Assembly: GCA_965212015.1 (NCBI GenBank) | Contig: OZ243037.1 | Span: 736,001 to 800,000, forward strand | Direction of reading: 5' to 3' | Source: Cenarchaeum sp. | GTDB taxonomy: Archaea > Thermoproteota > Nitrososphaeria > Nitrososphaerales > Nitrosopumilaceae | DNA length: 64,000 nt | Shown here: piece after piece, positions 8,429 to 43,312 of the stretch | How positions within the stretch are numbered: position 1 is the first letter of the stretch | Layout of the letters: each line of letters opens with the position of its first letter | The notes under the pieces: model-generated | What the model was told of the DNA's origin: nothing | The model's database searches: none | Seen by the model: only the letters and a program-made list of their open reading frames with translations | Made by a program: the position numbers and the translations under genes

Positions 8429-8570
8429 TTGACGCCTAGGCTCTGCCGGTAACGCCAAAAACCCCGAATTGGAGCCAAAAGTTGGCAAAGTTGGCAAATT
8501 AGGGAATGGTGGTGGGCAGGTGCGGGCCCGTCTGTAAAGCCCCGAATCAAAGCCAAAAGTTGACAAATTA
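8429..8570. repeat. 3' half of box A followed by a degenerate box B
   Basis: TTGACGCCTAGGCTCTGCCGG, then CCCGAATTGGAGCCAAAAGTTGGCAAAGTTGGCAAA...GTGGGCAGGTG...GTCTGTAAAGC. Confidence 0.85.
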
Positions 8571-8574
8571 AAAG

Positions 8575-8592
8575 AGAGCGCCCTCGGCGGGA
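8575..8592. repeat. Distal att site (duplicated tRNA-Asp 3' end)
   Basis: Identical to 28255-28272. Confidence 0.92.
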
Positions 8593-8804
8593 GTCTGCAG
8601 CTCAAAGTCAACGCCCTGCATCAGACTACCAGAAAAACCGTCCAAATATCGTAATTTTTGCATGATTATACACGGAATACGTGTCTCATAAGGCTTTCCT
8701 TCTTTTTGCAGCTGTAGATCGCAAATTATTTGAGCAGATCTTGACTTTTTGTCAATATACAGATGACAAACACATTAAAACAGATCCTAGGTTATTATAT
8801 AATA

Positions 8805-10001: not shown

Positions 10002-10016
10002 AATCCGATCCTCCAA

Positions 10017-10600
10017 AAGTTGACAAAGTTCACAGAGTTGACAAATTGGGGATGCTAGTGGGCAGGTGTGGTGCAGTCTGTAAAGCCCGAATTGGAGCCA
10101 AAAGTTGACAAAGTTCACAGAGTTGACAAAGTTCACAGAGTTGACAAAGTTGACAAATTGGGGATGCTAGTGGGCAGGTGTGGTGCAGTCTGTAAAGCCC
10201 GAATTGGAGCCAAAAGTTGACAAAGTTCACAGAGTTGACAAAGTTCACAGAGTTGACAAAGTTGACAAATCGGGGATGCTAGTGGGCAGGTGTGGTGCAG
10301 TCTGTAAAGCCCGAATTGGAGCCAAAAGTTGACAAAGTTCACAGAGTTGACAAAGTTCACAGAGTTGACAAAGTTGACAAATCGGGGATGCTAGTGGGCA
10401 GGTGTGGTGCAGTCTGTAAAGCCCGAATTGGAGCCAAAAGTTGACAAAGTTCACAGAGTTGACAAAGTTCACAGAGTTGACAAAGTTGACAAATCGGGGA
10501 TGCTAGTGAGCAGGTGTGGTGCAGTCTGTAAAGCCCGAATTGGAGCCAAAAGTTGACAAAGTTCACAGAGTTGACAAAGTTGACAAATTGGGGATGCCTA
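10017..10600. repeat. Hierarchical tandem repeat, about 5 x 112 bp, with nested 9/18-bp subrepeats (box B)
   Basis: GGGGATGCTAGTGGGCAGGTGTGGTGCAGTCTGTAAAGCCCGAATTGGAGCCA recurs at 10048, 10160, 10272, 10384 and 10496, separated by runs of AAAGTTGAC/AAAGTTCAC/AGAGTTGAC. Confidence 0.93.
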
Positions 10601-10701
10601 GAAAGTTGGCAAATTCAGGAAAAACGCCCAGATGGGGATCTGGGCGCAAAGTAGACAAATCAGGAGAGGCTGCAAGGCCATAGGGTTCAGAAATACATCT
10701 G

Positions 10702-10764
10702 CCTAGTATGAAAAAGTCTTCCAAAACCGACCCAGATTGACGCCTAGGCTCTGCCGGCAATGTC
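10702..10764. repeat. Dispersed repeat 'box A', copy 3
   Basis: 62/63 identical to 2059-2121. Confidence 0.9.
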
Positions 10765-10899
10765 TCCAAAAATTCCTGACCAGTGCCAAAAGTTGGCAAA
10801 GTTGGCAAATCGGGAATGGTGCCCAGAAAGTTGGCAGATCAGGAATCTGAGGAGCAAGATATGGCGGTGTTCATAAACCACGAATTGGTCCAAATCATC

Positions 10900-11544
10900 T
10901 TACTGGATTAGCTGTCGTTCGTATGTCTCTACAAGTTTTATTATGTCGTCATAGTAGACCTGGATTTTCTTTTCCAAGTGCTCTGTCAAATCCTTGCTAT
11001 GTGCAGGAATATTTCTGCACGACGCTAACTCGGACAATTTTACCCTTAATGCATCCTTGTCGTGAAATATGTTCTCAAAGTATTTCTTCCAGTTATTGTC
11101 GAATAATATCAACTGAAGATCTGAGAAATAGACCTCGTCTATGAGCTTATAGTCTGGGATTAGAAGAACTTTCTTGTATTTTTCGCCCCTTTGTTTCTCG
11201 ATTGCTACTTTTTCCTTTACTTTGGGGTGGATCTTGTTGTTCCACCAATCAGGATCATCCCTAGACAATTCCTGAACGATCAATTTGCGCATCTTGATCT
11301 CAAGACTTGAGATAAGATCCATGGAAGACATATAGGCCGTTTCTGTTCCTATGTACTTGACACGGCCTGATTGTTCGTCTTCGCATTTTACCTTTATGCC
11401 AAGATCATGCTTGGCATCCTTGGTTATAATCTCCTTGACGTAGCATGGAATCATATCCGGATTTTCATCTTCCTTGATCATGACTCGCATGCCGATCCTG
11501 ATATTGGCTCTGTAGTGTGGATCCTGGGATCCTTTTTGAATCAT
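10900..11544 (-). CDS. YwbE/DUF2196-like domain fused to a Swt1-like HEPN domain
   Basis: N-terminal RANIRIGMRV...VKEIIT...H..GIKV..ED...GRV; C-terminal LEIKMRKLI...DWW...RNIPAH (RxxxxH). Confidence 0.72.
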   Translation of the reverse strand: MIQKGSQDPHYRANIRIGMRVMIKEDENPDMIPCYVKEIITKDAKHDLGIKVKCEDEQSGRVKYIGTETAYMSSMDLISSLEIKMRKLIVQELSRDDPDWWNNKIHPKVKEKVAIEKQRGEKYKKVLLIPDYKLIDEVYFSDLQLILFDNNWKKYFENIFHDKDALRVKLSELASCRNIPAHSKDLTEHLEKKIQVYYDDIIKLVETYERQLIQ

Positions 11545-11551
11545 CCTATTA

Positions 11552-14104: not shown

Positions 14105-14127
14105 AATGTCTTTTGAGAAAGGCCGGG

Positions 14128-16785
14128 TTAAAATATCTTGGTCTGATCTGGGTCATGTGATACGCCAAGAGAGCCTGTAAACATCCCATCAATCCAGATC
14201 TTCTCCTTACTTGCAGAGTCAGATAGTGACTCGGAGATGGCCTGTGCTACCCGTTTTAGAACCTCACTGTGCTTGTATCCTTTGGATGTCAGGAATTTCT
14301 CTGATTCTTCTGTCATTTGATTCCTCCACAGTATAAGGGCATGATGCAATATGTCTATCAGCTCACCAGAATCTTTCAAATTCTCGGATTCCCTCTCATC
14401 TGGGCCCGCCATATGCACGTATTCCTTGTCTTTTCTGATAAATCCTTTGTCCAACTCTTGTGTTAGATCAATTCCGACACTGTGTGCAAGCTTTAATGCA
14501 TCATCAAATGGTGCCTTGGCATCACCATGTGCCCATCTCCATAGTATGTAAAACCGAGTTAAAGGCGATATCTTGCCAGCAAACTCGCCTCGTATTACCT
14601 TGTCTATTGCATAATTGGTTACCATAGTTCTTGTGTCTTCAAGCAATTTCAAGATGGGTACATCTTTATCCTGGTTGTCTATGACCTTGTCATATTTTCC
14701 GTACACTTCTATGGCAGATCCTATAGATGCAATAAAAAAATCAGCGCCCGCGATCTTCTCATTCCATAACTGATCTAGCTTTTTGTCAAGATATTGTTTT
14801 AGATCCCGCCTTATGTCTTGATAGAATCCTACTGGTTTCCTTTTCCATTTTCTGCACACCATATATATCGATGATAATAATGCAGCTGATTTGTTGGATC
14901 TCAATCTGCTTTTCATTTCCGTATGTATTGGCCATGCGGCTGTAACTACCAAACCAGCTTGAAGCAATGATTCAATTAATGTTTCCCAGCCATCAATGGA
15001 TTTGTGTGCATATACTATCACTGCTATGCCATTTGGTTTTAGAACTCGATGGATCTCTTGGAATGATTTTGCCAATGTTTCTTGAAAGAATTTTTTACCT
15101 GCTTCTATTCCACCAGGCCCGTTAGAGTACGTTACAATCTCATCACTCTTGGGAGTCAAAGGCGTTGAAAACATATCTGAAAATCTACTACCCATTATCC
15201 TCTTAAGCCACACGTAAAAGAAATCCGATAGATGAGAGTATGGAATATTGTCGTAATATGGTGGATCCGTAATCACTGCATCAAAGAACTCATTGGAGAA
15301 CGGCAATGCGGTAGCCGATGTACATTTTACGACTGCCGGTTTGGCGTCTATAATCGACAAATGCTCTAGCACTCCTAGAACCCATTTCTCCATGTTTGGC
15401 CAACCTATGCTAGTAAATGGATTAATTTCCGTATAGTCCCATATCATAGGTAATGCCAGACGACTAAAAATCTGTTCTACATTTTCTCTCGCCACATTAT
15501 ATCGAGCTAAATTAACATTCTTTGCTACAAGACGATCAAATATTATTCCCAGATATGGTAGAGTTTGTACATATTTGGGCGAATTTTCCTTCTCTATCAT
15601 TTTTGCAGCCTCGAGAATTTTTTCTACAAATGTAAGTTGAACGAGTTTTTGTCTATCGTTAAATAAATCTCCCCATGTATTCATATTATATAGTCTAATA
15701 GAAAATGCTCGTTCAGCACCACTACCTTTTCCTTCGGGAGTGGATTCATTTGGTATTAGATCAACACCATATTTTTGTTGGATTCTTCTTTGTTTTTTCT
15801 TTAATGTCTGCCGAGCTTTTACAAACACATCTAGATGATTTTTGGTTGCAATCTTGTATGTTTTACCGGATCTCTCTTTGTTATTGATTATCACAACATT
15901 CATGTTTTCAGTATTTTCATTATTAGTAAATAGTGCCTTAACTCTGTCACCATCCATTCTATGACCGCATATCAAACAACTAGCCTTACCTCTGGATATC
16001 GTTCCCCTTTGTGGATCAAAATCTTGGGGAATTTCATCCTTTCCATATTCTGCAATCTTGAATGAGATCTTTTTGTTCTGAACAGAGGGCAGTAATACAA
16101 TTTTTTTATTCCGAGTTCTAACCAACCAAAATTGCATCATTAGAGGAATAGTTGCACCACATCTAGGATTTTGGCAAGGAATACATCTTGACCACATATA
16201 TCCTACAGGCTCTCCTTCTTTTTCAGTTGGAAAGAATGCTGCAAGATCTTTTTTTGCTTCTTCCAATACCCATTGACTCCATTTTTTTACACATATGATC
16301 AGAGGTGAATCCTCATGTTGTTTATGACCGTGATTTTGCATCCCTCCCAGAAACGGATATTCTATGGCAGCTTTCACGATCAGACTGGCTACAGGGTTAT
16401 AATCTGATGCATATGTCTCACATCCCAATCGTAGAGCTTCTAGTGGTATACTCCCTCCTCCTGCAAACGGGTCAAGCACTCTAGGTGGTGTCTTGTTGTA
16501 ATCCATTATGCGTTTTCTTGCTCTGTCTACCAATTCGGAACGTATTGGATTTGACCACCTTGACAGTTCGGCAATCTCTTGCTTTAGGGTTTCCACTTCC
16601 TTCTTATTCTTTGGAGCAGGAATTAGTGATGCATATATGGTTGCCCGTGACGCTGCAAGAGGACGCCTTGCCCACCACAAATGCATGGTGGATATGTGTC
16701 CATGTCTTACGCTCTTGTCTCTAATTGATTCCTCACTGACCTTCTCAACTGGAAAATGTTCTTCGATGAATCGCCTTTCTGTCAT
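14128..16785 (-). CDS. DUF1156-family adenine DNA methyltransferase
   Basis: HLWWARRPLAASRA, LDPFAGGGSIPLEALRLG, TDPPYYDN, SDFFYVWLKR. Confidence 0.92.
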   Translation of the reverse strand: MTERRFIEEHFPVEKVSEESIRDKSVRHGHISTMHLWWARRPLAASRATIYASLIPAPKNKKEVETLKQEIAELSRWSNPIRSELVDRARKRIMDYNKTPPRVLDPFAGGGSIPLEALRLGCETYASDYNPVASLIVKAAIEYPFLGGMQNHGHKQHEDSPLIICVKKWSQWVLEEAKKDLAAFFPTEKEGEPVGYMWSRCIPCQNPRCGATIPLMMQFWLVRTRNKKIVLLPSVQNKKISFKIAEYGKDEIPQDFDPQRGTISRGKASCLICGHRMDGDRVKALFTNNENTENMNVVIINNKERSGKTYKIATKNHLDVFVKARQTLKKKQRRIQQKYGVDLIPNESTPEGKGSGAERAFSIRLYNMNTWGDLFNDRQKLVQLTFVEKILEAAKMIEKENSPKYVQTLPYLGIIFDRLVAKNVNLARYNVARENVEQIFSRLALPMIWDYTEINPFTSIGWPNMEKWVLGVLEHLSIIDAKPAVVKCTSATALPFSNEFFDAVITDPPYYDNIPYSHLSDFFYVWLKRIMGSRFSDMFSTPLTPKSDEIVTYSNGPGGIEAGKKFFQETLAKSFQEIHRVLKPNGIAVIVYAHKSIDGWETLIESLLQAGLVVTAAWPIHTEMKSRLRSNKSAALLSSIYMVCRKWKRKPVGFYQDIRRDLKQYLDKKLDQLWNEKIAGADFFIASIGSAIEVYGKYDKVIDNQDKDVPILKLLEDTRTMVTNYAIDKVIRGEFAGKISPLTRFYILWRWAHGDAKAPFDDALKLAHSVGIDLTQELDKGFIRKDKEYVHMAGPDERESENLKDSGELIDILHHALILWRNQMTEESEKFLTSKGYKHSEVLKRVAQAISESLSDSASKEKIWIDGMFTGSLGVSHDPDQTKIF

Positions 16786-19700
16786 GTAGATTTTTCCCGT
16801 ATCACTTCAGTGTCAACTATGTAATGTACGTCCTTCTTTGGGTTTATGGTGTGAGCCGGATCTTGGATTACTCTGGGCACCATATCAGTTTCTGGATGAT
16901 CCTTGGTGTTCCAGACCACGTACAGGTAATAGTCTGTTCCCAGATGCAGTGCCTTGAACCATTCATTGCGGGTGAGGGCTACCCTTCCCTCCTTGTGGCG
17001 ACCCTTTACTTCGATGTATCGAATCCCCCCATCACCAGTAGATTTTATGTCATATCCTAGACCTATGGTTTTTGATACGTCAGTAGGTTCCCTGCCATGT
17101 GCCCTCTCAAATTCCATGGCAGCCCTCATGGCAACCATTTCAGATTCCGTATTTTCTCTCATAGCATCAGGGATTACATCGGATGGTATCACTTTGATTA
17201 TTCCAAGAAATGTGGGCGTGCTAATTGTCAAATTTTTCTCTCTTTTTATGAGGTCTTCAAGGCGCTGCTTGCTGTCAATATACTGTCTCTGTCTTTCCTC
17301 CTTGCGCCTTATTGCAATGTCTACATTCTCCCCTTGTCTACGTCTTTCTCGAAGTGACAACAGATCCGCATCATGATCGTGGATAAGTTTCTGCATAGAC
17401 CGGATTCCATATTTTTCCTTGATCTGTGCCTGTCTCTCCCTTTCGTCTAGCAGTTCCTTTTGATAGTCCCTGAGTGTGGCTATTACCCCTGTTTGCACTG
17501 TAGCTTTCTGGCCCACTAGATCTACTGGTTCTGTATGTCCTCCTATCGAATCATCCAGATCCCACAGGATCGTAGTGGGTATGTGCTCTGCCGTGCCAGT
17601 TGCCGCATCCACATAATACGAGAACAGTCGCTTGCCTGCTATGCGTCCCGTACCATCCTGGATGATTCCCTCAAAGAACAACACCGTGCCGTTTAGCTGT
17701 CCAGAATGGTCCACAAACGTGGCTCCTCGTTGTAGGTTGGTGGTAAACTCCTTCGAGATCCACTCCAATACGGCCTCAAAGAGTGGATGTCCGAATGTAA
17801 GAAATTCAGCATCTTGATCCTTTGCACTGACCTCCTTACCGAAGGTTATCTTTCGGTATCCACTCTGTAATGTTCCAAATGATCTCCTGAAGTGATCCTC
17901 TCTTGCAATATTGCGAATCTGGTATGGAATAGAATCTATCGCATACAGTCCTCCCTGTCTAATTCTTATCTTGCCTTCAGCTTTGGCAAATGCTTTGATG
18001 AAAAAATCTGATGTATATTCAGGCATTAGTCTATTCTCTCTGGCCACCTCTTTAATGTCTCCAATCTTACGAAAATCTATGTTGCGGGTTGCTAGCGTGT
18101 CTGTCAAATTTTCCCTGATCTTTCGAATATAATCGTGATCTACAGTAATCTCCATCTCTTTTAGAACTTCTTCTTCTGTCTTTGCACCCATTGCTGCGTC
18201 TGACAATAGCTGCGCAAGATCCCGCCCATGGTATATGTCTCCTATTATATCATACACACGGTCACTACCCATTTTGGATCGTATTTCGGCCAGTTTTTCA
18301 AATAATCTCCTAAAGATCCTTCCCTCTATGGTATCTTGGGCCATCAGGTTGTAGACGAATACTTCGTATTTTTGTCCATATCTGTGGATTCTTCCCATCC
18401 TTTGTTCCAGTCTGTTTGGATTCCATGGTATGTCATAGTTTATCATTAGGTGGCAAAATTGCAAATTTATACCCTCTCCTGCAGCCTCTGTCGCAATCAT
18501 TACTCTGCTTTGATTCTTGAATGTCTTCTCTGCCTCTATCCTTTCGGCCAATTTCATGCCACCATGAATAGTGCTTACCATGTGACCCCAACTGATGACT
18601 CGTTTCTTGAGATACTCTAATGTATCCCTTGATTCCGTAAAGATGAGAATCTTGTCATTTACATGCTTTCTGTCAAGCTCCTCCATGGTTTGTTTGAGTG
18701 CCTTTAATTTTATTTCATGTTCACCATCAATCACGTCCTTGGCAACACCAATTAGCTCCTCTATCGTATGAATCTCTTTTCTGAGTTCATCCCTGTTCTC
18801 TGCTATGCTAAGAGTTTCCCATATTTGTTCGTGCTTCCACCTATCTTCCTCGCTCATATCTTCTACTTCTTCAAAGTCGACTACATTGGGCGCAGTCTGT
18901 TTAGATCTCTCAAAGTCTTTGAGCAGAACTGATAATCTGTCCCTCCTGCGCTGAAGTGATCTCCAAAGTGCAAAGCTACTGGATGCTAGTCGACGTTGAA
19001 GTACTATAACCGCAAACCCTATGTTTCTCTTCTTGTCTGGTGACAAGGCCTTGTTGAATTGGTTCCTGACGTATTCGGTCACACTTCTATACAGATCACG
19101 TTCTGGATTAGACAAACTGTAAGCCGGTGTAGAAACATGTCTGGGCAGGAATAAAGGCTTGCCATCAAAATCTTTCATGTCTTCCTTGATCTGTCTTAAG
19201 AAAAGCGTATTCTCGTCTTTTTTCAATGACTCCTCTAGCATCTCCGTGGTGGCAAAAAATCCAGGCTCCAGCAAATCTAGGAAAAGTCGAAAATTCTCAT
19301 TATCTCCTTTATGAGGTGTAGCTGTAAGGAATAACAAATGCTCCGAGTTAGTCGACAGTATCTCACCCAGTCTATATCTACTGGTTTTGGTAACTTTGTC
19401 GCCGTACCTGTACGCGGCCATCTTGTGAGCCTCATCTACTATAACTAGATCAAATTGAGCCGTCTGCATAGATGAAGCAACTTCTTCTCTCTTGGCAAAA
19501 TCTATCGATGTGATGAGCTGATTTTCCTTGTGCCAGACATTCTCTCCGTACAAAGCGTCTGTAGTTCCTCTGTCGGCGATCACGAACGACTCTTCAAATT
19601 TATCCTTCAACTCACGTCGCCATTGATCCTTGAGGTGTCCTGGTACGACAATCAATATTCTCCTTGCCAAGTGCCTCAGTTTCAGCTCTTTGATTATGAG

Positions 19701-20114
19701 GCCAGCCATAATCGTCTTACCCGCTCCCGGATCATGTGCTAATAGGAATCTAATACGCGGTATCTTTAGAACATGCCCGTATACCGCATCGATCTGATGT
19801 GGAAGTGGATCTATCTTGGACGAGTTCATGGCTAGTAATGGGTCATATAGGAACGCAAAACGGTATCTGATGGTCTCCAGTGCCAGGAATACCTTCCACG
19901 GCTCACTGGAAAAATCACAGTTGATCTTCTTGAGGCTGATATGGGTTAATTCCTCAGCAGCTAGGACAGCATCCACATGTGTGCCAGACTGTGTTAGTGA
20001 ACCGATTATTCTCACCATACCGTCTAATTGATCTACTTTTTTGATTTCTACTGGTTCTAACCACTTGGGGCCCTCAATCAATACACCGGCTTCAAGATCA
20101 GTGACATTCAACAT
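16782..20114 (-). CDS. SNF2-family helicase with C-terminal DUF3883-like nuclease domain
   Basis: PLPHQ, LLAHDPGAGKT, VDEAH, LTATPH, EAAGEGINLQ, WNPNRLEQRMGRIHRYGQ; C-terminal GYDI..RYIEVKG..LTRNEW. Confidence 0.92.
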   Translation of the reverse strand: MLNVTDLEAGVLIEGPKWLEPVEIKKVDQLDGMVRIIGSLTQSGTHVDAVLAAEELTHISLKKINCDFSSEPWKVFLALETIRYRFAFLYDPLLAMNSSKIDPLPHQIDAVYGHVLKIPRIRFLLAHDPGAGKTIMAGLIIKELKLRHLARRILIVVPGHLKDQWRRELKDKFEESFVIADRGTTDALYGENVWHKENQLITSIDFAKREEVASSMQTAQFDLVIVDEAHKMAAYRYGDKVTKTSRYRLGEILSTNSEHLLFLTATPHKGDNENFRLFLDLLEPGFFATTEMLEESLKKDENTLFLRQIKEDMKDFDGKPLFLPRHVSTPAYSLSNPERDLYRSVTEYVRNQFNKALSPDKKRNIGFAVIVLQRRLASSSFALWRSLQRRRDRLSVLLKDFERSKQTAPNVVDFEEVEDMSEEDRWKHEQIWETLSIAENRDELRKEIHTIEELIGVAKDVIDGEHEIKLKALKQTMEELDRKHVNDKILIFTESRDTLEYLKKRVISWGHMVSTIHGGMKLAERIEAEKTFKNQSRVMIATEAAGEGINLQFCHLMINYDIPWNPNRLEQRMGRIHRYGQKYEVFVYNLMAQDTIEGRIFRRLFEKLAEIRSKMGSDRVYDIIGDIYHGRDLAQLLSDAAMGAKTEEEVLKEMEITVDHDYIRKIRENLTDTLATRNIDFRKIGDIKEVARENRLMPEYTSDFFIKAFAKAEGKIRIRQGGLYAIDSIPYQIRNIAREDHFRRSFGTLQSGYRKITFGKEVSAKDQDAEFLTFGHPLFEAVLEWISKEFTTNLQRGATFVDHSGQLNGTVLFFEGIIQDGTGRIAGKRLFSYYVDAATGTAEHIPTTILWDLDDSIGGHTEPVDLVGQKATVQTGVIATLRDYQKELLDERERQAQIKEKYGIRSMQKLIHDHDADLLSLRERRRQGENVDIAIRRKEERQRQYIDSKQRLEDLIKREKNLTISTPTFLGIIKVIPSDVIPDAMRENTESEMVAMRAAMEFERAHGREPTDVSKTIGLGYDIKSTGDGGIRYIEVKGRHKEGRVALTRNEWFKALHLGTDYYLYVVWNTKDHPETDMVPRVIQDPAHTINPKKDVHYIVDTEVIREKST

Positions 20115-20221
20115 GGTTAATTCATACCCTCAATGAATAAATCTTGCCCCATAGATGTCGATGGTTTTGAATTATTATGATCCGACTCGTACATAACCTC
20201 CCGATCATGTGATTTATGGCC

Positions 20222-20449
20222 GGCCTTGGTGACCTGTACGGGCCTTGGTGACCTGTACGGGCCTTGGTGACCTGTACGGGCCTTGGTGACCTGTACGGGC
20301 CTTGGTGACCTGTACGGGCCTTGGTGACCTGTACGGGCCTTGGTGACCTGTACGGGCCTTGGTGACCTGTACGGGCCTTGGTGACCTGTACGGGCCTTGG
20401 TGACCTGTACGGGCCTTGGTGACCTGTACGGGCCTTGGTGACCTGTACG
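20222..20449. repeat. Perfect tandem array, 12 x 19 bp
   Basis: Unit GGCCTTGGTGACCTGTACG; 228 bp. Confidence 0.95.
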
Positions 20450-20487
20450 GGCTTGTGCGGGCTTTGTGTATGTGATTTGTATCCTGT

Positions 20488-20583
20488 CCGGGCCGGGACT
20501 CCGGCCCGGGATGGTTCTGGGCAAGAGGGCCGGCTCTGCCGGCCCGATGATGTGATGGGATAGGGCTCCCGTCAGGGAGCCCT
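20488..20583. other. Three consecutive GC-rich hairpins
   Basis: CCGGGCCGG-gact-CCGGCCCGG (20488-20509), GGGCCGGC-tct-GCCGGCCC (20527-20545), AGGGCTCCC-gtca-GGGAGCCCT (20562-20583). Confidence 0.8.
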
Positions 20584-20711
20584 GGAGGAAAAGACGTTGA
20601 GATTACCGAGTCAGAGTTCGTTGTTGGAGACTTGTGAGGTAACTGCGAGCTGGAAAATCTGCCGGCTCAGGCATAACAGCCCGTCCGGGGCACATTCAAT
20701 CATGCCCTAAA

Positions 20712-20875
20712 TGCATATTATGCATGACCCTCATGCATGTTCTGCACCATACAAGTGCATATTCTGCATGGGAAAAAACGCCCATTATGCCAAATATGCA
20801 CCGCCCTCATGCATGTTCTGCATACGGAAAACATGTCTCATGCTAAACATGCACCATCCTGGTGCATTTTATGCA
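20712..20875. promoter_or_regulatory. Array of seven TGCA-N5-TGCA boxes, helically phased (candidate centromere/operator array)
   Basis: Boxes start at 20712, 20734, 20756, 20788, 20810, 20841 and 20863 (spacings 22,22,32,22,31,22); two have a degenerate first half-site (TGCC, TGCT). Confidence 0.75.
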
Positions 20876-20912
20876 TTTTTTTGGCCTTTTATGTAAACCG
20901 ATATTATACAGC

Positions 20913-21239
20913 ATGGAACTTGAAGACATACAGCGAAAGATCCAATTCCGCCAGGGCTCATATATGGTGACCATACCGCTCCAGATAATCCACATGCTGG
21001 GAATCCGCAAGGACCATCATGTGAAGTTTGCCGTCTCCAAAAACAAGATTGTCATAAAGCCAATCGAGTCCAACATTACCAAAAAGGATCTGAGCGAGGC
21101 CGAAAAAGACTCTGCCATACTGGATGAATCCCACACTCCCGGATACCGGGAGGATCTTGCCATAGCGCTGGGACGAAAGACCAAACCTGAAAAAGATAGT
21201 GCAGAGCCCAGCCGCCTTGAAAAGCTCAGGATGAAATGA
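20913..21239 (+). CDS. AbrB/MazE/SpoVT-fold DNA-binding protein with charged C-terminal tail
   Basis: RKIQFRQGSYMVTIP...LGI..D.HVKF...KIVIKPI; TATA-like TTTATGTA about 25 bp upstream. Confidence 0.85.
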   Translation: MELEDIQRKIQFRQGSYMVTIPLQIIHMLGIRKDHHVKFAVSKNKIVIKPIESNITKKDLSEAEKDSAILDESHTPGYREDLAIALGRKTKPEKDSAEPSRLEKLRMK

Positions 21240-24200
21240 CTACGGTCGATACCTTTTTTCTTTCCTCATCATCAAGGCCGTCGCGGATCTGCCTTATTTT
21301 ATAGCTCTTGGACCACACGTGGCACTCGGAGAATCCAAGCTTTGGCCACTTTGTCATGTTGTATCTTACGTGCTCCTGGTGGCTCTGCACCTCGCTGAGA
21401 GACTCTATCTCTACACTGATTGCGATTTCCTCTGTATAGTTATAGGCTACCAGATCAGTCCGGTCCCTTCCCTTTTTGATGCGCTGGGATGCCATTGCCA
21501 CAAACAGGCCCTCGTCCAGATACGCCTCGATTGCCTTTTTGGAGACCTCCGGTATGTCAGGTGCCGTGCCAATCTGTGCATAGTCAAACTCAAAGTATGC
21601 CTTTTGGGTCTTTTCAGCAAGCCTGTACGGCGAGGTTCGCTCCGCACCGGTCCTCTCTATCCTGCCGTGCTCCTCCATCTCTTTGAGAACGGGCACCACC
21701 TCGTCCCTGTTCTGCACCTTGAGGGCATTTACAATCTGGGCCTGCCTCATCTCCTCCCCGGACAGCAGGCGCATTATATCCCACTCCATCTTGGTCGGAA
21801 ACTCGACTTCAATGTTTTCAATCCACCTGTTTCTCTCCCTGCCGGCCTGCGCTATCGAGTTCTGGCCTATGCTGCCGCCGCCGTACCTTGCCAGCTGTGC
21901 CGCAATATACGCGTCATACTCTGCTTCCCCTACCAGAATCTCCGGCGGCGGACTGAGCCAGAACTGCATGGGCGGGGGCTGCTCCTGGCCCGGCGGCGCC
22001 TTTTCGCGCACGGTCCAGTGAAAGTACTCCTGGCTGGCAAGCTGCTGTAGGAGCTCCCTTTGGAACTGGGGATCCCATATCTGGGCTATCCGGGATGCGT
22101 CCTTGCCGTTGACTTTGCCTATCATCTGCGTGCCAGAGTTTCCTGATATTATTCCAAGCTGCTTGTCGCTTATCTGCTCGGTGGTCTGGTGGGATAACAC
22201 GAGCCCCAGTCCCAGTGATCTTGCCTGCTCGAGCATCAGCTGTAATACCTGGAGGTCCTTTACTATCTGAAACTCGTCTAACGCCAGAACCACCTGTGTT
22301 CGTTCCGACTCGTCCGGAACACGGTTTGCCCTCTCTTGTATGGTAAACCACAGTTTTAGTATGAACGCCTGCATGGCCAGCGGCTGGACGTGCTGCGGCA
22401 TGTTGAGCGGGGATATCCGGACAATGGTCTGCCGTCCAGGCTTTATTAATTCGCCAAAGTCTACCGTTCCCCTACGTACAGAGAACATGCGCTTTAGCAC
22501 GGGGTCGGTAGCAAACTGCTCCACGCGGTTGAGCAGGGGCGTAAAGGCATCCCCCTTTAGGGTGGCAATGCTGGTAAGTGCCTGCTTCATCTCGGGATCC
22601 GGCGTGCCAAACGTCTGTATGATATGCGGCATGGCGCGCACGCCATTATCCTGTAGTCGCAATATGATATCGTGAATGTCTAGGAACGTGGGGGCATCGT
22701 GCCTCATGTAAATATAGAACAGCAAGGCCCGGAATATTCGCTCCATCTGCACATAGCTTGCCGACTGCTGGTACCATTCCTCTATGGTCTTCATGAAATA
22801 CCCGACATATCGAGACACGACCTCCTCGCGCTCCCACGGGGAATGCGCCGGCAATTCCAGTGGGTTTATCGAGAATTTGGTCTTTTGTGGATCCAAAAAG
22901 TGTATGCGCTCGCCTGTCAGGGATTCTGCCTCACACTGCCGGACAAACTTGTGTGAGTCGTCCCCCTTGGGGTCCACGTATATGAACGCGTTTGGAAACT
23001 TGCCGTTGTGGTTCCACATTTCCAGATGCTTGGCAAACAGCCTGATCAGCGAGGTCTTGCCGGAGCCCGATGCCCCGACGGCATAGACGTGCGTGGCAAA
23101 GTCGGTAGGCGATATGACTGCGGCATTTAGGTCCTTTGACCTATCAATCCCGCCCCACAGAGACTTCCAGTCAAAGCCTTTTTCCGGATTCTTGAAAAAC
23201 CCGACACATGCCCCCGCCTTTAGCGACGGCTTTGAGGGGATCATTACTCCGCGCGTGGTATCGATGTTTGGCGTGACAGGCTCTGGCAAATGCACCAAAA
23301 GAGGAATCTCCTCCAGGTTCAGTATGAGAAACGGAAGCGGCTCGCGCTCGCGGTACCCCAGTATCCCCTTGTCAAAATAGCGCCCGATCGCACCGTCCAG
23401 AAACTTGCCGGGGTCCGGAAGCAGCCTGTGCCTGAATATGCCTATTCTGGGCATCTTTTCCCTGCTGTCTGCCACCCGAATCCGCGTCTTTTTGGGCTCA
23501 TCTGCCAGAAAATTTTGATACTTGTATCGGAATTTTGTAAGGTGCTCGTGGCCGGAATGGATGTTCTCGACTGGCAGGGCCTCTATTTCGTCAAAATTGA
23601 GGTCTATATCGCGATCGCTCCTTATCATGCCCCTTATGCTCATGAGCAGCTGGGCAGACTGCATCTTGAGCGTGGCATGCTTTTGAAGGCCGCCGTAATT
23701 GTTGGTAAAGTCGTACCCCATCTCAGGGTGCTCGTGGGGCTTTTTGTCCGGATTCATGATAATCTCGGTATTGCTGAGGTATCTGCCGCGCTTGATCTCG
23801 CGCACCTTTTCATCCAGCCTGCCCACGTGTTTGCGCAGGAACGGGCCGAACGTGTGGTGCTTGAATACGATCTGTATCCAGGCGTGCCTGGAGAGCTGTA
23901 CGGTGTTTGCCACCTGCGTGATCAGCTGGTGCGCGCGGGCCCGGTCAAATACGGCCGAATAATGGCCGTGATATGTCCCCACGTCAAATATCTGGCACTC
24001 GGACTCGTCAAACCACCCCGGCACCGTGTTTGACATGTCAGAGAATACGGAATTTGGATACATGTTTAGAAATGCCTGCTTGTAGGCGGCAAGGTCGTTT
24101 TTTTCCGCTACCAGGACAAACTCCATTTTTTTCTCATCGGCGTCCCACCACACCTCAAAGCTCCGAATACCTGCGCTGGCAAGCCCGCCGGCTGCCAGTA

Positions 24201-24342
24201 CTGCCTTTTTTTCATTCATGTCTATGGGGACGACAATCGAGCAGGCGGCCAGCTCCCCCGGCGTGGCAAGAAAATCCTTGACCTGATCCAGCCTGCCTGA
24301 TGGTTTTTTCTTGTTGGCAAGGCGCCACCGTTTTGAACCCAC
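21226..24342 (-). CDS. VirB4/VirD4(TraG)/HerA-like ATPase with C-terminal wHTH and possible PD-(D/E)xK domain
   Basis: Walker A GASGSGKT, YVDPKGD, INPLE, Walker B LALDEFQ, QARSLGLGLVLSHQ; 1038 aa. Confidence 0.85.
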   Translation of the reverse strand: MGSKRWRLANKKKPSGRLDQVKDFLATPGELAACSIVVPIDMNEKKAVLAAGGLASAGIRSFEVWWDADEKKMEFVLVAEKNDLAAYKQAFLNMYPNSVFSDMSNTVPGWFDESECQIFDVGTYHGHYSAVFDRARAHQLITQVANTVQLSRHAWIQIVFKHHTFGPFLRKHVGRLDEKVREIKRGRYLSNTEIIMNPDKKPHEHPEMGYDFTNNYGGLQKHATLKMQSAQLLMSIRGMIRSDRDIDLNFDEIEALPVENIHSGHEHLTKFRYKYQNFLADEPKKTRIRVADSREKMPRIGIFRHRLLPDPGKFLDGAIGRYFDKGILGYREREPLPFLILNLEEIPLLVHLPEPVTPNIDTTRGVMIPSKPSLKAGACVGFFKNPEKGFDWKSLWGGIDRSKDLNAAVISPTDFATHVYAVGASGSGKTSLIRLFAKHLEMWNHNGKFPNAFIYVDPKGDDSHKFVRQCEAESLTGERIHFLDPQKTKFSINPLELPAHSPWEREEVVSRYVGYFMKTIEEWYQQSASYVQMERIFRALLFYIYMRHDAPTFLDIHDIILRLQDNGVRAMPHIIQTFGTPDPEMKQALTSIATLKGDAFTPLLNRVEQFATDPVLKRMFSVRRGTVDFGELIKPGRQTIVRISPLNMPQHVQPLAMQAFILKLWFTIQERANRVPDESERTQVVLALDEFQIVKDLQVLQLMLEQARSLGLGLVLSHQTTEQISDKQLGIISGNSGTQMIGKVNGKDASRIAQIWDPQFQRELLQQLASQEYFHWTVREKAPPGQEQPPPMQFWLSPPPEILVGEAEYDAYIAAQLARYGGGSIGQNSIAQAGRERNRWIENIEVEFPTKMEWDIMRLLSGEEMRQAQIVNALKVQNRDEVVPVLKEMEEHGRIERTGAERTSPYRLAEKTQKAYFEFDYAQIGTAPDIPEVSKKAIEAYLDEGLFVAMASQRIKKGRDRTDLVAYNYTEEIAISVEIESLSEVQSHQEHVRYNMTKWPKLGFSECHVWSKSYKIRQIRDGLDDEERKKVSTVVISS

Positions 24343-24394
24343 ACAGACAAAACCCCGGTTGTATTTAAGGCGGTTTTATCGTGCAAAAAAAAAA

Positions 24395-25207
24395 TTACTC
24401 TACAAGCTTGTAGAGGCCGGCGGCATTGCTCATCACCGGATTGACGGGGACGCTGATCTTGAACTTTTTGAGCCGCGCCTCGAGCTCGTCGCGCACGCCG
24501 GGAATCAACAGTCCCCCGCCGGATAACGCAAGCTCGTACGAGCCATAGTTTGAGGCCACGTCGGTTATCTCCGTTGCCAGGTTTTCTGCAAGCACCTTTG
24601 CGTATTTTTTGCACGTCTCCTTGCGCCGTACCAGAAGGTCCCTGTACAGGTGGGCAAACTTGCCCACTTTACGGGTTATGAACTCCGATGCCCACCTCGA
24701 GCTCTCACCGTCGATCACCTCATTGTCGTCAATGACCACTATCTCTGTGGTCCCCTGTCCGATGGATACGACCATGCCGGTGCTCTTTCCGAGGTCGATG
24801 AGTGTTCCTACTGCCTGGGCGACCACGTCGCACCTTTCCACGTCCGTCGATCTTTTGACGATCTTGGAGATGGATTCGCGGCAGTCAGATGCCTCGTATG
24901 GCAGCCCCACGGCTATCCGGGTCTTTTCCTCCTTTTCTGTGCCGCAGAGCCTGTCAATGGCCTCGCGGATCAGCAGCTCTACCTGTTTTTGATATCTGGG
25001 ATCCGGCCTTCCGCGCACTATGGGCCTGACTATGGAGGTGCCGGTGCTCTCTAGCATCCTTAACGCCCCCTCGCCTACTGCCTCCGATGCCTTGCCGGTC
25101 CAGTCGCCGTTTGTCCTCTTGACGTACAGCGACGGAAACGTGACAGAGCCCCGGTTGGATACGCACTTTACAAAGCCGGTTCCGATATCCAGTCCTAACT
25201 TTAGCAT
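24395..25207 (-). CDS. Actin-like ATPase, ParM/StbA-like
   Basis: Phosphate-1 GLDIGTGFVK, connect-1 VVAQAVG, phosphate-2 SIGQGTTE, adenosine LSGGG, connect-2 PVMSNAAG. Confidence 0.88.
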   Translation of the reverse strand: MLKLGLDIGTGFVKCVSNRGSVTFPSLYVKRTNGDWTGKASEAVGEGALRMLESTGTSIVRPIVRGRPDPRYQKQVELLIREAIDRLCGTEKEEKTRIAVGLPYEASDCRESISKIVKRSTDVERCDVVAQAVGTLIDLGKSTGMVVSIGQGTTEIVVIDDNEVIDGESSRWASEFITRKVGKFAHLYRDLLVRRKETCKKYAKVLAENLATEITDVASNYGSYELALSGGGLLIPGVRDELEARLKKFKISVPVNPVMSNAAGLYKLVE

Positions 25208-25464
25208 TACAATACAAATGTGAGATGGATTTAAGGCCAAAAATTTATGGCAGTTTAGTGTACGAGGTCACCTGTCCTGCCTAAAAGACATCTTGTGATG
25301 CGAAATTCACGCCTAATTACAGTAAGACGTGACCTCACACAGTTTAGTGTATTTAAAGTATAAATATTATAAATACATATGCAGCCTGATAATTCTAGAG
25401 GCTCAGAAAATATACAAAGAATGGAAAAGACAAAATAAGGCGACAAGAATTATTTGATATCATA

Positions 25465-25620
25465 TTGGCATCAGATGAAAGCAATGAAGTTGTTAAGAAG
25501 GATGAACTGGACAAAATCATCGATAGTCTAGTTGCTCAAATGTGTTATGCTCTTAATGAAGATAAGAAACGGATGGATAAGATAGAAGATCGAATCAAAA
25601 ATCTAGAACCCGATGACTAG
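25465..25620 (+). CDS. Possible 51-aa coiled-coil protein
   Basis: Manual translation from TTG: MASDESNEVVKKDELDKIIDSLVAQMCYALNEDKKRMDKIEDRIKNLEPDD. Confidence 0.45.
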   Translation: MASDESNEVVKKDELDKIIDSLVAQMCYALNEDKKRMDKIEDRIKNLEPDD

Positions 25621-25750
25621 CTCTTGATTACGTAACAGAACCTCAAATCATCCTCCATGTTTAACGATATTATCGGCATAAAGCCAAAAATTGATCCGGT
25701 AGGCTAGATGATTTTACATGCATTATTCCGGATGTTTTTTCAGAGGCCAG

Positions 25751-26626
25751 TCACATGTCGGATGCCGCATCTGCAAGCTTTGTTTTTTCCTCCTCCTCCT
25801 GCCTTATGATCTCGTTGTATTTTTTCATGTCGAGGTGTTTTTTGATGTTGGTTTCAAGTAGTCTTACGAGCTTTTTTGGATCTAGTGCGTCAAGCTCCCA
25901 TGATTGATCCCCGTATATCTCCCTGTACTGTCCGGATCTGGGATCGGACATCTTTGTGGGGTTTGGGGGCGGCTCGTATTTTTTTATCTGATCCATTGTA
26001 AGGGCAATCCTCTGTATGTCGACTGAGCATCTAAAATCGGCCAGCCGCATGTTCATGTCACGCACCATGTCGATTCCGCTCGGATCGTGGTCGCCCAGAT
26101 ATAGAATGTGGCATATCTTGCCGTTCTCTTCGTCCTGTTGGTTTATCCTCTGTGCCAGATCATGCATGGCACTGGCAGACGCGTATCCCTTGTTTGCAAG
26201 CAGCGAGACGTGATACTTGTCGGCTACCGGCTCCAGGATTCCGGCCAGTGCCTCCTTTTCAACTATGACCTCCACATAGTGCGGCTGGTCATGCCATCTG
26301 TGCCTTCGATATGAATAGGTGGCCGCATTGACGAGGTCGGACAGATTCCAAAACTGGCTGGGCATTATCCGCTTTCTTACCCTGTCCACTATGGTGTCCC
26401 AGTCGATCTCGCCGTTCATCCGGCCTATGTTGAGGAGCTTGCTTGTACGCTGATACATATTGTCCACATTTGCCAGTATAAGGCGCGTCACCATCTGATA
26501 GTATACCTGCCTGACGGTGAGGAGATAATTCAGAGCCTCGTATTCCTCTATCACGTGGATCATCTTGTCTAAAAGTATCCTACTAGCTTTGTGGATGTTT
26601 TTTTCTGCATATTGTATTTTGGCCAT
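25751..26626 (-). CDS. Stand-alone TopoVI-A/Spo11-like wHTH-Toprim protein
   Basis: TVRQVYYQ (candidate catalytic Tyr), VEVIVEKEAL, KGYAS, YLGDHDPSG, WELDAL. Confidence 0.8.
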   Translation of the reverse strand: MAKIQYAEKNIHKASRILLDKMIHVIEEYEALNYLLTVRQVYYQMVTRLILANVDNMYQRTSKLLNIGRMNGEIDWDTIVDRVRKRIMPSQFWNLSDLVNAATYSYRRHRWHDQPHYVEVIVEKEALAGILEPVADKYHVSLLANKGYASASAMHDLAQRINQQDEENGKICHILYLGDHDPSGIDMVRDMNMRLADFRCSVDIQRIALTMDQIKKYEPPPNPTKMSDPRSGQYREIYGDQSWELDALDPKKLVRLLETNIKKHLDMKKYNEIIRQEEEEKTKLADAASDM

Positions 26627-26821
26627 GATAAAGTACCATAACATACCGTACTGGGTATATATTATTGTAACGATCAGGGTGGTCGGCAGGCGGATTACGG
26701 GTTTGGGTTCGGCTAGAGTCATGATTGGGTAGGACTATATGTTCAGATAAATCACTCTGCCGGTGCAATTCGGGCCGATACGAAATATGACGGCCTTTTA
26801 AGCTGCCCGTATTTCACAGAT

Positions 26822-26929
26822 ATGGAAGAATTCATTCAGGTTCCAAAAAGCATGCTGCTACAGTTACAGCAATTAATCCTGGAATACAGGACCGAGGTTG
26901 AAAGGATGAAAAAGGCATTTACCGGCTAG
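26822..26929 (+). CDS. Possible 35-aa peptide convergent with the integrase
   Basis: MEEFIQVPKSMLLQLQQLILEYRTEVERMKKAFTG; its stop overlaps the integrase stop in a shared CTAG. Confidence 0.35.
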   Translation: MEEFIQVPKSMLLQLQQLILEYRTEVERMKKAFTG

Positions 26930-28185
26930 GTCTGCAGGGATTTCTGCTTTAAAAGCTCGCCAAAGATCAGGTCAAGTTTTTTCTCTACCTTTCTGATGCG
27001 CTCAAGGCCCGCGTTCATCTCGTCTATCACGCCCTGCTGCGTCTTTGCATCCTGCGGCAAGAGCGCCCCGTCGAGAATGTATCCGCACTGGGAGCATCTC
27101 TGGTTATCCGGGGTGTTTTGTGTGCTGCACCGGGGACACGTATCAAGCCGTATTATCCCGTTGGAATCATCCTTGATTCTTATCCCGTGCATCTCCAGTA
27201 TCGCCTCGTCAATGTCCTTGCCTGACAGGTGGACGTATTTTTTTGCCATGTTTGAGTTTGGACTCCAGTTGCCATACACGCGAAGCGTCTGGTCTGAGAG
27301 CTTTTTGGCAAGAAGCGTCAGCTGCGTGTGCCGCATCAGATACAGCCACACCTTTTTTGTAATACCGGCATCCGTTGCATACTGCCTGAGGTGACAGCGC
27401 AGATAGCTGTACGATACCCTGGCCACCCCGCTCCGCGATGTTGTAGAGTGCCACAAAAACGCATCCGGATTGTCCCTTTCGGGGTGTTCCCTGAGCCACT
27501 CCAAAAGTGGCTTAAAGGATAGCACGAGTGCCACGCGCTTTGAACCAGTCTTGCCTCCATGTGTGGTAACCAGGACATGGTCGTCCTTGAAATCAATGCC
27601 GCCGACCTTGAACTTTAAGAGCTCACCGGTACGAAACGCACCCTCAAAGAGAACCCAGTACATTGCGCGGTCCCGCTTGTTTGATATCTTTCCCAAGAGG
27701 GCGACCACCTCGTCTGCAGTCAAAAGATCCTCTGGCCTTACTGTAACCTCGTTTTTGTCAAGGTACCGCGACGGCTTTATCCACGACACCTCTTTTGCGT
27801 ATCCGTCCTCCCGAGTTCCAATCTCGCCGGTCTTTACAAAATGGATGAATTTCAACAGGGCAAGGGCGTACGCCTTTTTCGTCTCGCCGCTGTATGCCTC
27901 GTTTGATATTATCTCAGACAGTATGGACTCGCAGTGATGTTTTTTGACGTTTTTTAGGCGTGTTTTTGCAAATTTCTTACCGTACAGCCGCAGTATGAGG
28001 GCCATCCTGTCGCCATAATAGCATATACGGCCGTCCCGGATTCCAGATATCTTTAGGTGCTCCAAAAATCTTACTGCCGCATCCCCCTGCGGTATCGTGC
28101 CAAACTGTCGCTTGAGACGCCTTATCTTTCCGGTATAGTTGTAAATATCGTCCTCGGATCTTGCGGTGTTATGTTTGACGTTCAT
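26926..28185 (-). CDS. Tyrosine recombinase/integrase with C-terminal Zn ribbon
   Basis: RDRAM..VLFEGAFRTGE (R), GKTG (K), YLMRHT, YGNW, KKYVHL (Y); CPRC..CSQC. Confidence 0.92.
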   Translation of the reverse strand: MNVKHNTARSEDDIYNYTGKIRRLKRQFGTIPQGDAAVRFLEHLKISGIRDGRICYYGDRMALILRLYGKKFAKTRLKNVKKHHCESILSEIISNEAYSGETKKAYALALLKFIHFVKTGEIGTREDGYAKEVSWIKPSRYLDKNEVTVRPEDLLTADEVVALLGKISNKRDRAMYWVLFEGAFRTGELLKFKVGGIDFKDDHVLVTTHGGKTGSKRVALVLSFKPLLEWLREHPERDNPDAFLWHSTTSRSGVARVSYSYLRCHLRQYATDAGITKKVWLYLMRHTQLTLLAKKLSDQTLRVYGNWSPNSNMAKKYVHLSGKDIDEAILEMHGIRIKDDSNGIIRLDTCPRCSTQNTPDNQRCSQCGYILDGALLPQDAKTQQGVIDEMNAGLERIRKVEKKLDLIFGELLKQKSLQT

Positions 28186-28258
28186 GGCGGCACACTCCAA
28201 GTATCGGTTAGTATAAAAGCCCGCTTTTTTCTGCAGGGCGTTGACCAAGAAGTTAGAG

Positions 28259-28333
28259 CGCCCTCGGCGGGATTTGAACACGCGTCTCAGCCGTGACAGG
28301 GCCGAATTCTAGACCGGGCTATACTACAAGGGC
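28259..28333 (-). tRNA. tRNA-Asp (GTC)
   Basis: GCCCTTGTAGTATAGCCCGGTCTAGAATTCGGCCCTGTCACGGCTGAGACGCGTGTTCAAATCCCGCCGAGGGCG folds as a cloverleaf; one T-stem mismatch. Confidence 0.9.
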
Positions 28334-43239: not shown

Positions 43240-43312
43240 TGCATATTTCAGGGTACTTGCCGTATTTATCACATTTGCATCCCGAAAAAGGCTGTGCCGG
43301 CCGAAGGATGTG

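Follow-up and report, generated by a model that had tools for sequence, protein, structure and literature searches.

Whether a mobile element of an archaeon may hold or move its DNA with an actin-based machine is the question raised by a locus of Cenarchaeum sp. that lies in a stretch of 64,000 nt (GenBank assembly GCA_965212015.1, contig OZ243037.1, positions 736,001 to 800,000 of the forward strand). This whole stretch is referred to as the window, and its numbering is used unless a genome or another locus is named. The locus comprises three genes, which encode a 270-aa actin-fold ATPase, a 1038-aa VirD4/TrwB-like ATPase and a 108-aa AbrB-fold protein, the last preceded by a phased array of short repeats. 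The segregation of bacterial plasmids by actin-like proteins is well understood: in ParMRC an actin-fold ATPase is combined with a small dimeric DNA binder that carries a C-terminal peptide for its partner, and with a centromere of phased repeats by which the promoter is autoregulated. In the literature searched, no actin-based segregation was described for an archaeal mobile element.

The trio, found in a mobile-element family of ammonia-oxidising archaea, probably holds or moves element DNA. A ParMRC-like reading of the locus was partly supported; a probability of about 0.4 was assigned to the proposal that the complex of AbrB protein and array marks the element DNA for a joint machine of the actin and the large ATPase.

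A phased array, its putative binder and two ATPase genes

The array (20702..20876) is made up of RTGCA-N5-TGCAY boxes, of which five are exact (starts at 20712, 20734, 20756, 20810 and 20863) and two carry one mismatch (20788, TGCC..TGCA; 20841, TGCT..TGCA); an eighth, overlapping half-box is located at 20702, 9 bp upstream. The starts of the seven boxes are 22, 22, 32, 22, 31 and 22 bp apart, exactly the spacing given in a preliminary description of this DNA. Nine exact copies of TGCA-N5-TGCA were found in the 64-kb window compared to 1.68 expected and a maximum of five in 100 shuffles; five of the nine belong to the array. The preliminary description had also placed the array just upstream of the AbrB promoter, and its last box does stop at 20876, 7 bp before a TATA/BRE-like sequence, GGCCTTTTATG (20883..20893, plus strand). 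This sequence lies 20-30 nt before the ATG of the AbrB gene at 20913 and the AbrB mRNA is therefore likely to be leaderless.

A TATA-like motif of equal type and at equal distance before the start codon was present in 24 related upstream regions, and every array inspected among the related loci runs up to such a motif 20-30 nt before the start codon. In 21 of the 26 upstream regions, Tandem Repeats Finder (TRF) detected an array no more than 200 nt away from the start of the AbrB gene; boxes are visible in locus L015 too. The leading autocorrelation lags of the related arrays were 22, 32/33, 54/55 and 9; their units vary from element to element, while the 22/33/54-bp phasing is constant. The term palindromic, used initially for the boxes, is correct for the subgroup of the window but not for many of the related arrays, in which the half-sites, spaced by 9 bp, are direct repeats. 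The median TRF-covered length was 133.5 nt (n = 24) for arrays of actin-bearing loci versus 42 nt (n = 6) for those of actin-less relatives, which are short sets of two to eight nine-bp repeats. It is almost certain that the adjoining AbrB protein binds to the array, which necessarily regulates the AbrB promoter.

The 108-aa protein (20913..21239, plus strand) was assigned to the AbrB/SpoVT fold by Pfam and PDB profile matches. The window protein alone matched Pfam MazE_antitoxin/SpoVT-AbrB with an E-value of 2.3e-4 and 21.5 bits, under the cut-off of 24.7; relatives exceeded this cut-off with 34.8 and 26.9 bits. A profile of 24 homologues matched solved MazE and AbrB/MazE/SpoVT chains, including 2mrn and 1ub4, at E-values of 3.7e-5 to 5.7e-5, in agreement with the fold proposed initially. 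The swapped-hairpin domain of the AbrB superfamily, the N-terminal ~50 residues, is thus recognisable by profile, its fold being assigned from sequence. In the window protein the DNA-binding domain (residues 1-55) is followed by a TKKD..AEKD block, a variable charged linker and the C-terminal residues SRLEKLRMK. The alignment of 24 sequences contained three conserved blocks, namely the DNA-binding domain, a TKKD..ADKY block and a terminal motif of the L-E-K-L-R-M-K type that is set off by a linker of variable length; Leu105 was invariant. What had been noted as a long charged tail therefore includes a C-terminal peptide that is conserved beyond the variable charged linker. The sequences of 57 of 61 database homologues end in a [LMI]-[ED]-[KR]-L-R-[ML]-[KRG]-like motif, including an -RMG variant, and this motif was found in no other open reading frame (ORF) of less than 220 aa in this genome. 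With its flexible linker, such a terminal peptide has the look of a motif by which the protein docks on a conserved partner.

The AbrB gene is convergent with an operon of the actin and ATPase genes and overlaps the 3' end of the ATPase gene by 14 nt. A TATA-like sequence, GGCCTTAAAT, precedes the operon at 25229..25238 (minus strand). Its first gene (24395..25207, minus strand) encodes the 270-aa actin-fold ATPase, which matched MreB_Mbl (53.3 bits) and ALP_N (29.1 bits) over their cut-offs and a PHROG "partition protein" family with an E-value of 1.3e-18; the match to the NCBIfam family ParM reached only 19.3 bits, compared to a cut-off of 417. The phosphate-1, phosphate-2, adenosine and connect motifs were invariant in 62 homologues, as seen in the blocks DxGxG..K, GQGTTE, SGGG and PxMSNAxG. 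These results uphold the identification of an actin-fold ATPase with actin motifs and its co-orientation with a large translocase-like ATPase, since the ATPase gene (21226..24342, minus strand) starts 52 nt downstream on the same strand and its product matched TrwB_AAD_bind over the cut-off (23.7 bits; cut-off 20.5).

Other family matches of this 1038-aa soluble P-loop ATPase were lower: TraG-D_C scored 19.3 bits, below the cut-off of 22, and conju_CD1115 aligned with residues 415-740 but reached 26.9 compared to a cut-off of 250. Homologues of the protein carry PF10412, PF02534 and PF12696. The VirD4/TrwB-type P-loop domain spans residues ~415-750, with the Walker A motif at 423-431 and the Walker B motif at 685-691. 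The N-terminal 400 aa were found only in this protein family (61 proteins) and include an invariant H-G-H and a Tyr; the C-terminal part shows weak winged helix-turn-helix (wHTH) similarity and is nuclease-like, with invariant residues D963, E978, E980 and K998. A PDB profile search with the ATPase gave no match at E-values up to 0.1, and Pfam searches with the N-terminal 410 aa or the C-terminal 209 aa alone gave nothing better than an E-value of 0.07. None of 36 pattern matches on viral contigs was a relative of the ATPase.

No membrane anchor was detected in the ATPase (the highest 19-residue Kyte-Doolittle mean was 1.34), and the VirB4-type families PF12846 and PF03135 had no match in the genome, which is 99.7% complete, under conditions in which control genomes were matched. 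Both findings make a role as a conventional conjugative coupling protein unlikely for the ATPase in this genome; in addition, no relaxase was recognised. Where relatives of the ATPase occur in AT-rich genomes, a weak match to a prepilin peptidase is located in their neighbourhood.

Conservation of the trio and the partner of the tail peptide

A second element in the same genome (paralogue L003) has the order integrase, actin, ATPase, convergent AbrB and array. The two co-resident elements are 47% identical in the integrase, 64% in the actin, 71% in the ATPase and 30% in the AbrB protein; both AbrB proteins end in EPSRLEKLR[MI]K, and the two arrays show no relationship in sequence. When one genome per species was scanned, 28 further loci were obtained, all labelled Nitrosopumilaceae or Nitrosopumilus and numbering up to five per genome; the linkage counts refer to these loci together with the window and the paralogue. 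Where DNA beyond the ATPase was available, an intact convergent gene for a tailed AbrB protein was present in 25 of 27 loci; one locus had a degenerate gene (L006) and one had none (L028), the ATPase of the latter being truncated. The actin gene was present in 25 of the 26 loci with enough upstream DNA. The search for co-occurrence of the three genes and an array in archaeal genomes, suggested in the preliminary description, thus revealed a linkage that is strictly conserved among related loci. Members of the actin family were detected in 41 of the 223 genomes sampled from one family, two of the 41 being flagged unpublished, and in none of 177 genomes from 19 other families of the class; members of the ATPase family were detected in 50 of 400 genomes from that one family.

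From locus to locus the array varies jointly with the DNA-binding domain of the AbrB protein, and the partners, the phasing and the terminal motif are constant. Arrays had recurrent 7-mers in common only if the DNA-binding domains of their AbrB proteins reached 60% identity or more. As independent evidence this joint change was rejected, given an overall rho of 0.13 that 106 of 2000 permutations reached or exceeded and the shared ancestry of adjacent sequences. In a separate observation, the whole modules of L012 and L015 were found inverted ~3 kb apart on one contig; their AbrB DNA-binding domains are nearly identical and their arrays are of the same type.

In the mechanism that is proposed, AbrB dimers would occupy half-sites with a 9-bp spacing, grouped in units that follow one another at two or three helical turns, and many dimers would coat ~170 bp on roughly one face of the DNA, their own promoter included. 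In the actin-bearing clade this nucleoprotein complex would be an element-specific handle, or centromere, by which the excised circular element is connected with the co-conserved actin, a putative filament former, and with the soluble VirD4-like ATPase. The conserved C-terminal peptide, carried on a flexible charged linker, may be the coupling link and would either contact the actin directly, as ParR does its partner, or reach the actin through the ATPase. The actin would form filaments and segregate the element. A direct, ParR-like contact would fit three properties of the actin-bearing clade: neither a ~95-aa adaptor ORF nor any other adaptor was found when the related loci were compared, the arrays are long, and the tail is basic exactly where the actin is present.

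The distant members of the actin family are also relevant here. In actin clades of at most 40% identity the ATPase is not nearby, except in L074, where the trio is rearranged such that an AbrB-like ORF is convergent on the actin gene and the ATPase gene is divergent. In 11 of 18 distant loci the actin gene is directly followed by an ORF of ~95 aa whose C-terminus is conserved in its own right; an adaptor directly downstream of the NTPase in the operon, which the window does not have, is therefore found in distant clades of the family. Repeated 20-bp palindromes lie around or before the actin promoter of L079 (~5560-6000) and L080 (~5720-6060), in the latter as four copies of the GGTCGTCTAATTACGCGACC type, and in both loci an ORF of ~95 aa ending in DPDLL directly follows the actin gene. 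This arrangement reads as the classical centromere-motor-adaptor layout in archaea, which suggests that the actin family is probably a partition motor.

An actin clade of ~40% identity (L064-L069) has a gene for a tail-less AbrB protein of 58-72 aa, 0.6-5 kb downstream, in six of six loci; integrases adjoin three of the six, and the ~95-aa ORF is also present. In some loci inserts that have no relationship to the ~95-aa adaptor ORFs separate the actin and ATPase genes; in one subclade the insert is an ORF of ~90 aa (minus strand; L017 7417-7686, L024 7414-7689, L031 7331-7606) that, judged by eye, has the look of a RelE/ParE-type toxin.

Several observations weigh against the ParMRC-like reading. 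As the preliminary description had cautioned, the AbrB gene is convergent with the actin gene and 3.1 kb from it, and no repeats were found upstream of the actin promoter. Homologous actins without the AbrB adaptor, which had been named at the outset as an outcome that would speak against the proposal, do occur in the distant clades. Arrays of the same type coexist in one genome (L012/L015, L009/L020, L013/L021), so divergence driven by incompatibility is not strict, and orphan arrays exist without any AbrB gene. The array correlated poorly with the AbrB domain (see above), and both this correlation and those between tail and partner rest on related, non-independent loci. The convergent AbrB-ATPase pair was also found where there is no actin. 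In an ATPase clade at 40-55% identity to the ATPase of the window, a convergent AbrB gene was detected with a hidden Markov model (HMM) in six of ten loci, with divergent AbrB-like ORFs in two more and a broken one in another; the actin was present in none of the 20 loci L082-L101, and four 99%-complete genomes that have the AbrB-ATPase pair contained no actin-profile match anywhere. The pair is older than the association with actin. A homologous tail (L-x-x-L-x-hydrophobic) is found where the whole genome has no actin of the family: the tails of actin-less loci (NPLKDLDL, NPLDEVF and others) can be aligned with the window tail via intermediates such as DPLDRLEIK, and the partner of the tail peptide therefore probably predates the actin.

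Tail similarity followed actin identity (rho 0.37, or 0.30 with ATPase identity removed) more closely than whole-ATPase identity (rho 0.23; 0.05 partial), which is weak evidence for the ParMRC-like reading; for the C-terminal part of the ATPase, rho was 0.37, equal to the actin figure and a further point against the ParMRC-like reading. These correlations were rejected as an arbiter between actin and ATPase because they were too weak and the loci were not independent. The proposal of a ParMRC-analogous system with an AbrB adaptor has thus been supported in its linkage, its tail, its promoter-abutting arrays and the relatives of its actin, but not with respect to the pair and tail, which predate the actin.

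Since the pair and the tail motif predate the actin, docking of the tail on the ATPase would fit their history, and the tail may dock there. The AbrB-array complex would then serve the VirD4-like ATPase and not the actin, an explanation that is rather doubtful and comes second in likelihood to the joint machine. The tail would load a hexameric motor or nuclease at a defined site, as TraM or TrwA does or as clt does with TraB, or it would restrain the ATPase as the tail of MazE does MazF; the actin would find DNA otherwise or have another role. Consistent with this explanation, the convergent, 3'-overlapping pair is kept down to 40-55% ATPase identity and in actin-less genomes, the tail motif is homologous in both clades, and the ATPase matches TrwB_AAD_bind and TraG-D_C (the "TraM recognition site") and has the wHTH-like and nuclease-like C-terminus. 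A conserved hairpin and box module beside the array, which resembles an origin of transfer, and the weak prepilin-peptidase match near the relatives in AT-rich genomes, as in thaumarchaeal conjugative elements (in the text of PMC6563490), point in the same direction. In contrast, the ATPase has no membrane anchor, the 99.7%-complete genome has no VirB4-type ATPase, no relaxase was recognised, and in split or short forms of the ATPase no AbrB gene was detected by HMM (zero of seven loci, L092-L098). Docking on the ATPase also leaves unexplained why longer arrays and a basic tail occur exactly with the actin, and how an actin translationally adjacent to the ATPase finds DNA without an adaptor.

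The hairpin module, orphan cassettes and the host element

The module beside the array (20487..20653, plus strand) was defined from alignments and consists of three GC-rich hairpins (20488-20509, 20527-20545 and 20562-20583), a T-rich stretch and a box, GTGAGGTAACTGCGAG (20634-20649), in which TGCGA is nearly invariant. An 8-bp hairpin was 99.1% paired over 18 distinct sequences, with compensatory changes in four of eight pairs; its covariation score was reached by none of 500 shuffles, and slid controls were 31-65% paired. RNAalifold on a wider alignment of the module returned only three pairs, the value of 99.1% coming from the tighter alignment. As single-stranded DNA the module had a folding z of -5.3. 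A reading of the box as a ribosome-binding site with the ATG of a small ORF was rejected, since the window has CTG and only TGCGA is conserved. A search of 20100-20950 against Rfam returned only a chance-level microRNA match on a 19-bp repeat (24.8 bits compared to a gathering score of 197).

This 19-bp repeat is a perfect tandem repeat of 12.2 copies (20222..20452); the hairpin module, of ~170 nt, lies between it and the array. The same unit was found in L003 (~14716-14994) and at genome positions 649235-649534 and 1162613-1162667, so that tandem repeats of 12-15 copies flank the module and the unit is common to co-resident elements whose arrays differ. In other genomes a different unit is again shared within the genome, for example a 13-bp unit in L010, L011, L014 and L019 and a 15-bp unit in L009 and L020. 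Contigs from public runs contained copy-number variants of the tandem repeat, with joints at 20237-20524.

At least 11 copies of the hairpin module are present in the genome at 79-86% identity (L102-L105), at ~324.6, 647.8, 648.8, 649.6, 650.2, 947.7, 1108.2, 1134.3, 1162.8, 1163.4 and 1163.9 kb. Each is followed by its own, differing repeat array; AbrB, ATPase or actin genes are near only two copies and nine are without them. Some of these cassettes form head-to-tail stacks, of four copies at 647.8-650.7 kb beside a 532-aa recombinase-like ORF and of three at 1162.8-1164 kb. A compound orphan array at genome positions 650554-650738 contains eight boxes of the TGCA-N5-TGCA type of the window. 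The orphan cassettes may be relics, decoys or non-autonomous elements. They would be non-autonomous hitch-hikers or decoys acting in trans if the module were a three-part machine, in which AbrB-array centromeres tether the circular element via a portable peptide to both the actin and a translocase or nuclease; this fuller version is unlikely.

Slightly less likely still is the explanation that the array is a mere autoregulatory or immunity operator, at which AbrB represses its own promoter and the tail serves oligomerisation; convergent transcription would perhaps let AbrB repress the actin-ATPase operon too. Every array does stop at the TATA box, proteins of the AbrB/MazE/SpoVT type are classical repressors, the nine-bp repeats of the actin-less relatives, in sets of two to eight, are operator-like, and the tail-less genes of the ~40%-identity actin clade indicate that AbrB regulators are common on these elements. 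However, arrays of 130-270 bp with four to nine phased units far exceed the need of a promoter, and the orphan arrays are followed by neither a promoter nor a gene. The terminal motif of seven to nine residues, behind its low-complexity linker of variable length, is kept while the DNA-binding domain falls to 20-30% identity, as would be expected of a docking peptide and not of an oligomerisation domain. It is very improbable that the non-coding ~800 bp are a replication origin with the array as iterons, AbrB as initiator or copy-number (handcuffing) protein and the ATPase as recruited helicase: the element has no recognisable replication protein, origins often combine iterons, hairpins and repeats, and the N-terminal domain of the ATPase has its invariant H-G-H and Tyr, but an AbrB-fold initiator is not known, FtsK/TrwB-type motors are not a known class of replicative helicase, and the promoter position and 22/33-bp phasing suit an operator or a centromere equally.

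The trio is carried by a ~19.7-kb element integrated at a tRNA-Asp gene. The left attachment site is one copy of an 18-nt direct repeat (8575..8592); the right site, in which the identical second copy (28255-28272) overlaps the 3' end of the tRNA-Asp gene (28258-28333, minus strand), spans 28255..28333. Beside the tRNA gene lies the gene for a XerA-like tyrosine recombinase with a C-terminal zinc ribbon (26926..28281, minus strand; family match). Contigs of two public runs from one study link 28258 to 8580 inside the repeat, a join that marks a circular or tandem form; these contigs come from close relatives (90-99% alike) and the evidence is at the contig level. The recombinase beside the tRNA gene, the terminal direct repeats and the circular or tandem junction together make up the features of a tRNA-integrating element, and the integrative archaeal element described initially is thereby supported. 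Family searches of the proteins of the element recognised no replication protein.

Between the actin operon and the recombinase, a gene at 25751..26722 (minus strand) encodes a 323-aa protein of a phage "DNA topoisomerase" family (PHROG 6247, E-value 8e-88) without a Pfam match; among the related loci compared, only three have such a protein by tblastn (W1, L004 and L022). In runs X3 and X4, 71 other letters stand in place of 25252-25776, adjoining this gene. The cargo was identified by Pfam and comprises a STAND/AAA ATPase (8763-10001, plus strand) and, on the minus strand, a DUF2196+HEPN protein (10900-11643), a DUF499 ATPase (11552-14104), a DUF1156 methyltransferase (14128-16785) and an SNF2 helicase with a NOV_C domain (16782-20114). 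This region, 8763-20114, looks like a defence island and has a GC content of 0.39-0.45, compared to ~0.52 in the core module.

A 48-bp tandem repeat of 17 copies in register (7516-8583) stops at the left attachment site, a 112-bp repeat family lies within the element at 10016-10697, and a 63-nt stretch occurs twice at 98% identity, 8.6 kb apart (2059-2121 and 10702-10764). The repeats at 2059-2121, 7516-8583 and 10016-10764 suggest older or nested insertions left of the element. Elsewhere in the window, ARAGORN predicted a 93-nt tRNA-like gene (43312-43404, minus strand) for which the anticodon loop is read as four bases (tcca) and no amino acid is assigned; it may be an intron-containing tRNA.

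Comparison with known systems

The module is a compact candidate of three small-to-medium genes and a site of ~170 bp, and the dozens of binder and array pairs that differ in specificity and share one tail are a natural set of variants. If AbrB is the adaptor, the DNA-binding folds of the known centromere binders would be joined by a third; should its partner be the VirD4-like ATPase instead, a coupling-protein motor would be used in archaea free of the membrane. Either way, the trio provides a signature gene set by which a class of "cryptic" elements integrated in thaumarchaeal genomes can be defined; such elements reach five copies per genome, and defence cargo is carried by many of them.

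In MazE the N-terminus dimerises in the AbrB fold, the partner protein is gripped by a long charged tail at the C-terminus, and an operator lies at the protein's own promoter. The window protein resembles it in its AbrB-fold N-terminus (the PDB matches included 2mrn and 1ub4), its charged tail and the array at its own promoter. It differs in that the window has no MazF-like toxin, the neighbouring gene is convergent and not co-transcribed, and the array is far longer than a toxin-antitoxin operator.

The coupling-protein systems TraD-TraM of F, TrwB-TrwA of R388 and TraB-clt of Streptomyces are alike in combining an FtsK/TrwB-type motor with a small sequence-specific binder of repeated sites beside the motor gene. 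The contact between TraD and TraM is made by a terminal peptide; in the window the peptide is on the DNA binder and not on the motor. In contrast to these systems, the motor of the window is anchorless, the genome has no VirB4, no relaxase was recognised and the accessory protein has the AbrB fold.

Among bacterial actins, AlfA is close in size to the 270-aa actin of the window. SrpMRC of SXT/R391 integrative and conjugative elements, AlpA/AlpC/alpS of prophage CGP3 and AlfA/AlfB/parN of pLS32 are actin-based segregation or transport systems with site-specific adaptors (PMC4489591, PMC5539076, 10.1101/190744). They share with the module their location on integrating elements, prophages and plasmids, and they differ in being bacterial, in having other adaptor folds and in lacking a fused translocase partner; the relationship of their actins to that of the window was shown at the level of the actin superfamily only.

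The main text of Krupovic et al. 2019 (PMC6563490) describes thaumarchaeal elements that are integrated into tRNA genes by tyrosine recombinases, with VirD4/TraG homologues as signature genes of the conjugative elements; the window element likewise has tRNA-gene integration by a tyrosine recombinase and a VirD4/TraG homologue. In the same text cryptic elements have no signature genes, and actin, ParM, AbrB, SpoVT, MreB and StbA are not mentioned; its supplementary annotation may list such genes. Neither the module nor a centromere binder with the AbrB fold was described in the literature searched, for which supplementary files were outside the scope.

In ParMRC of plasmid R1, as in the window, an actin-fold ATPase occurs together with phased repeats over a promoter and with a small DNA-binding protein that carries a peptide at its C-terminus. 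The adaptor of the window has the AbrB/SpoVT fold and not a ribbon-helix-helix, its gene is convergent and distant instead of downstream in the operon, the repeats are on the promoter of the adaptor with none at that of the actin, a 1038-aa VirD4-like ATPase occupies the slot of ParR, and the host is an archaeon. Although it misses the adaptor position, the adaptor fold and the repeats at the motor promoter, the module is closest in its working to type II partition.

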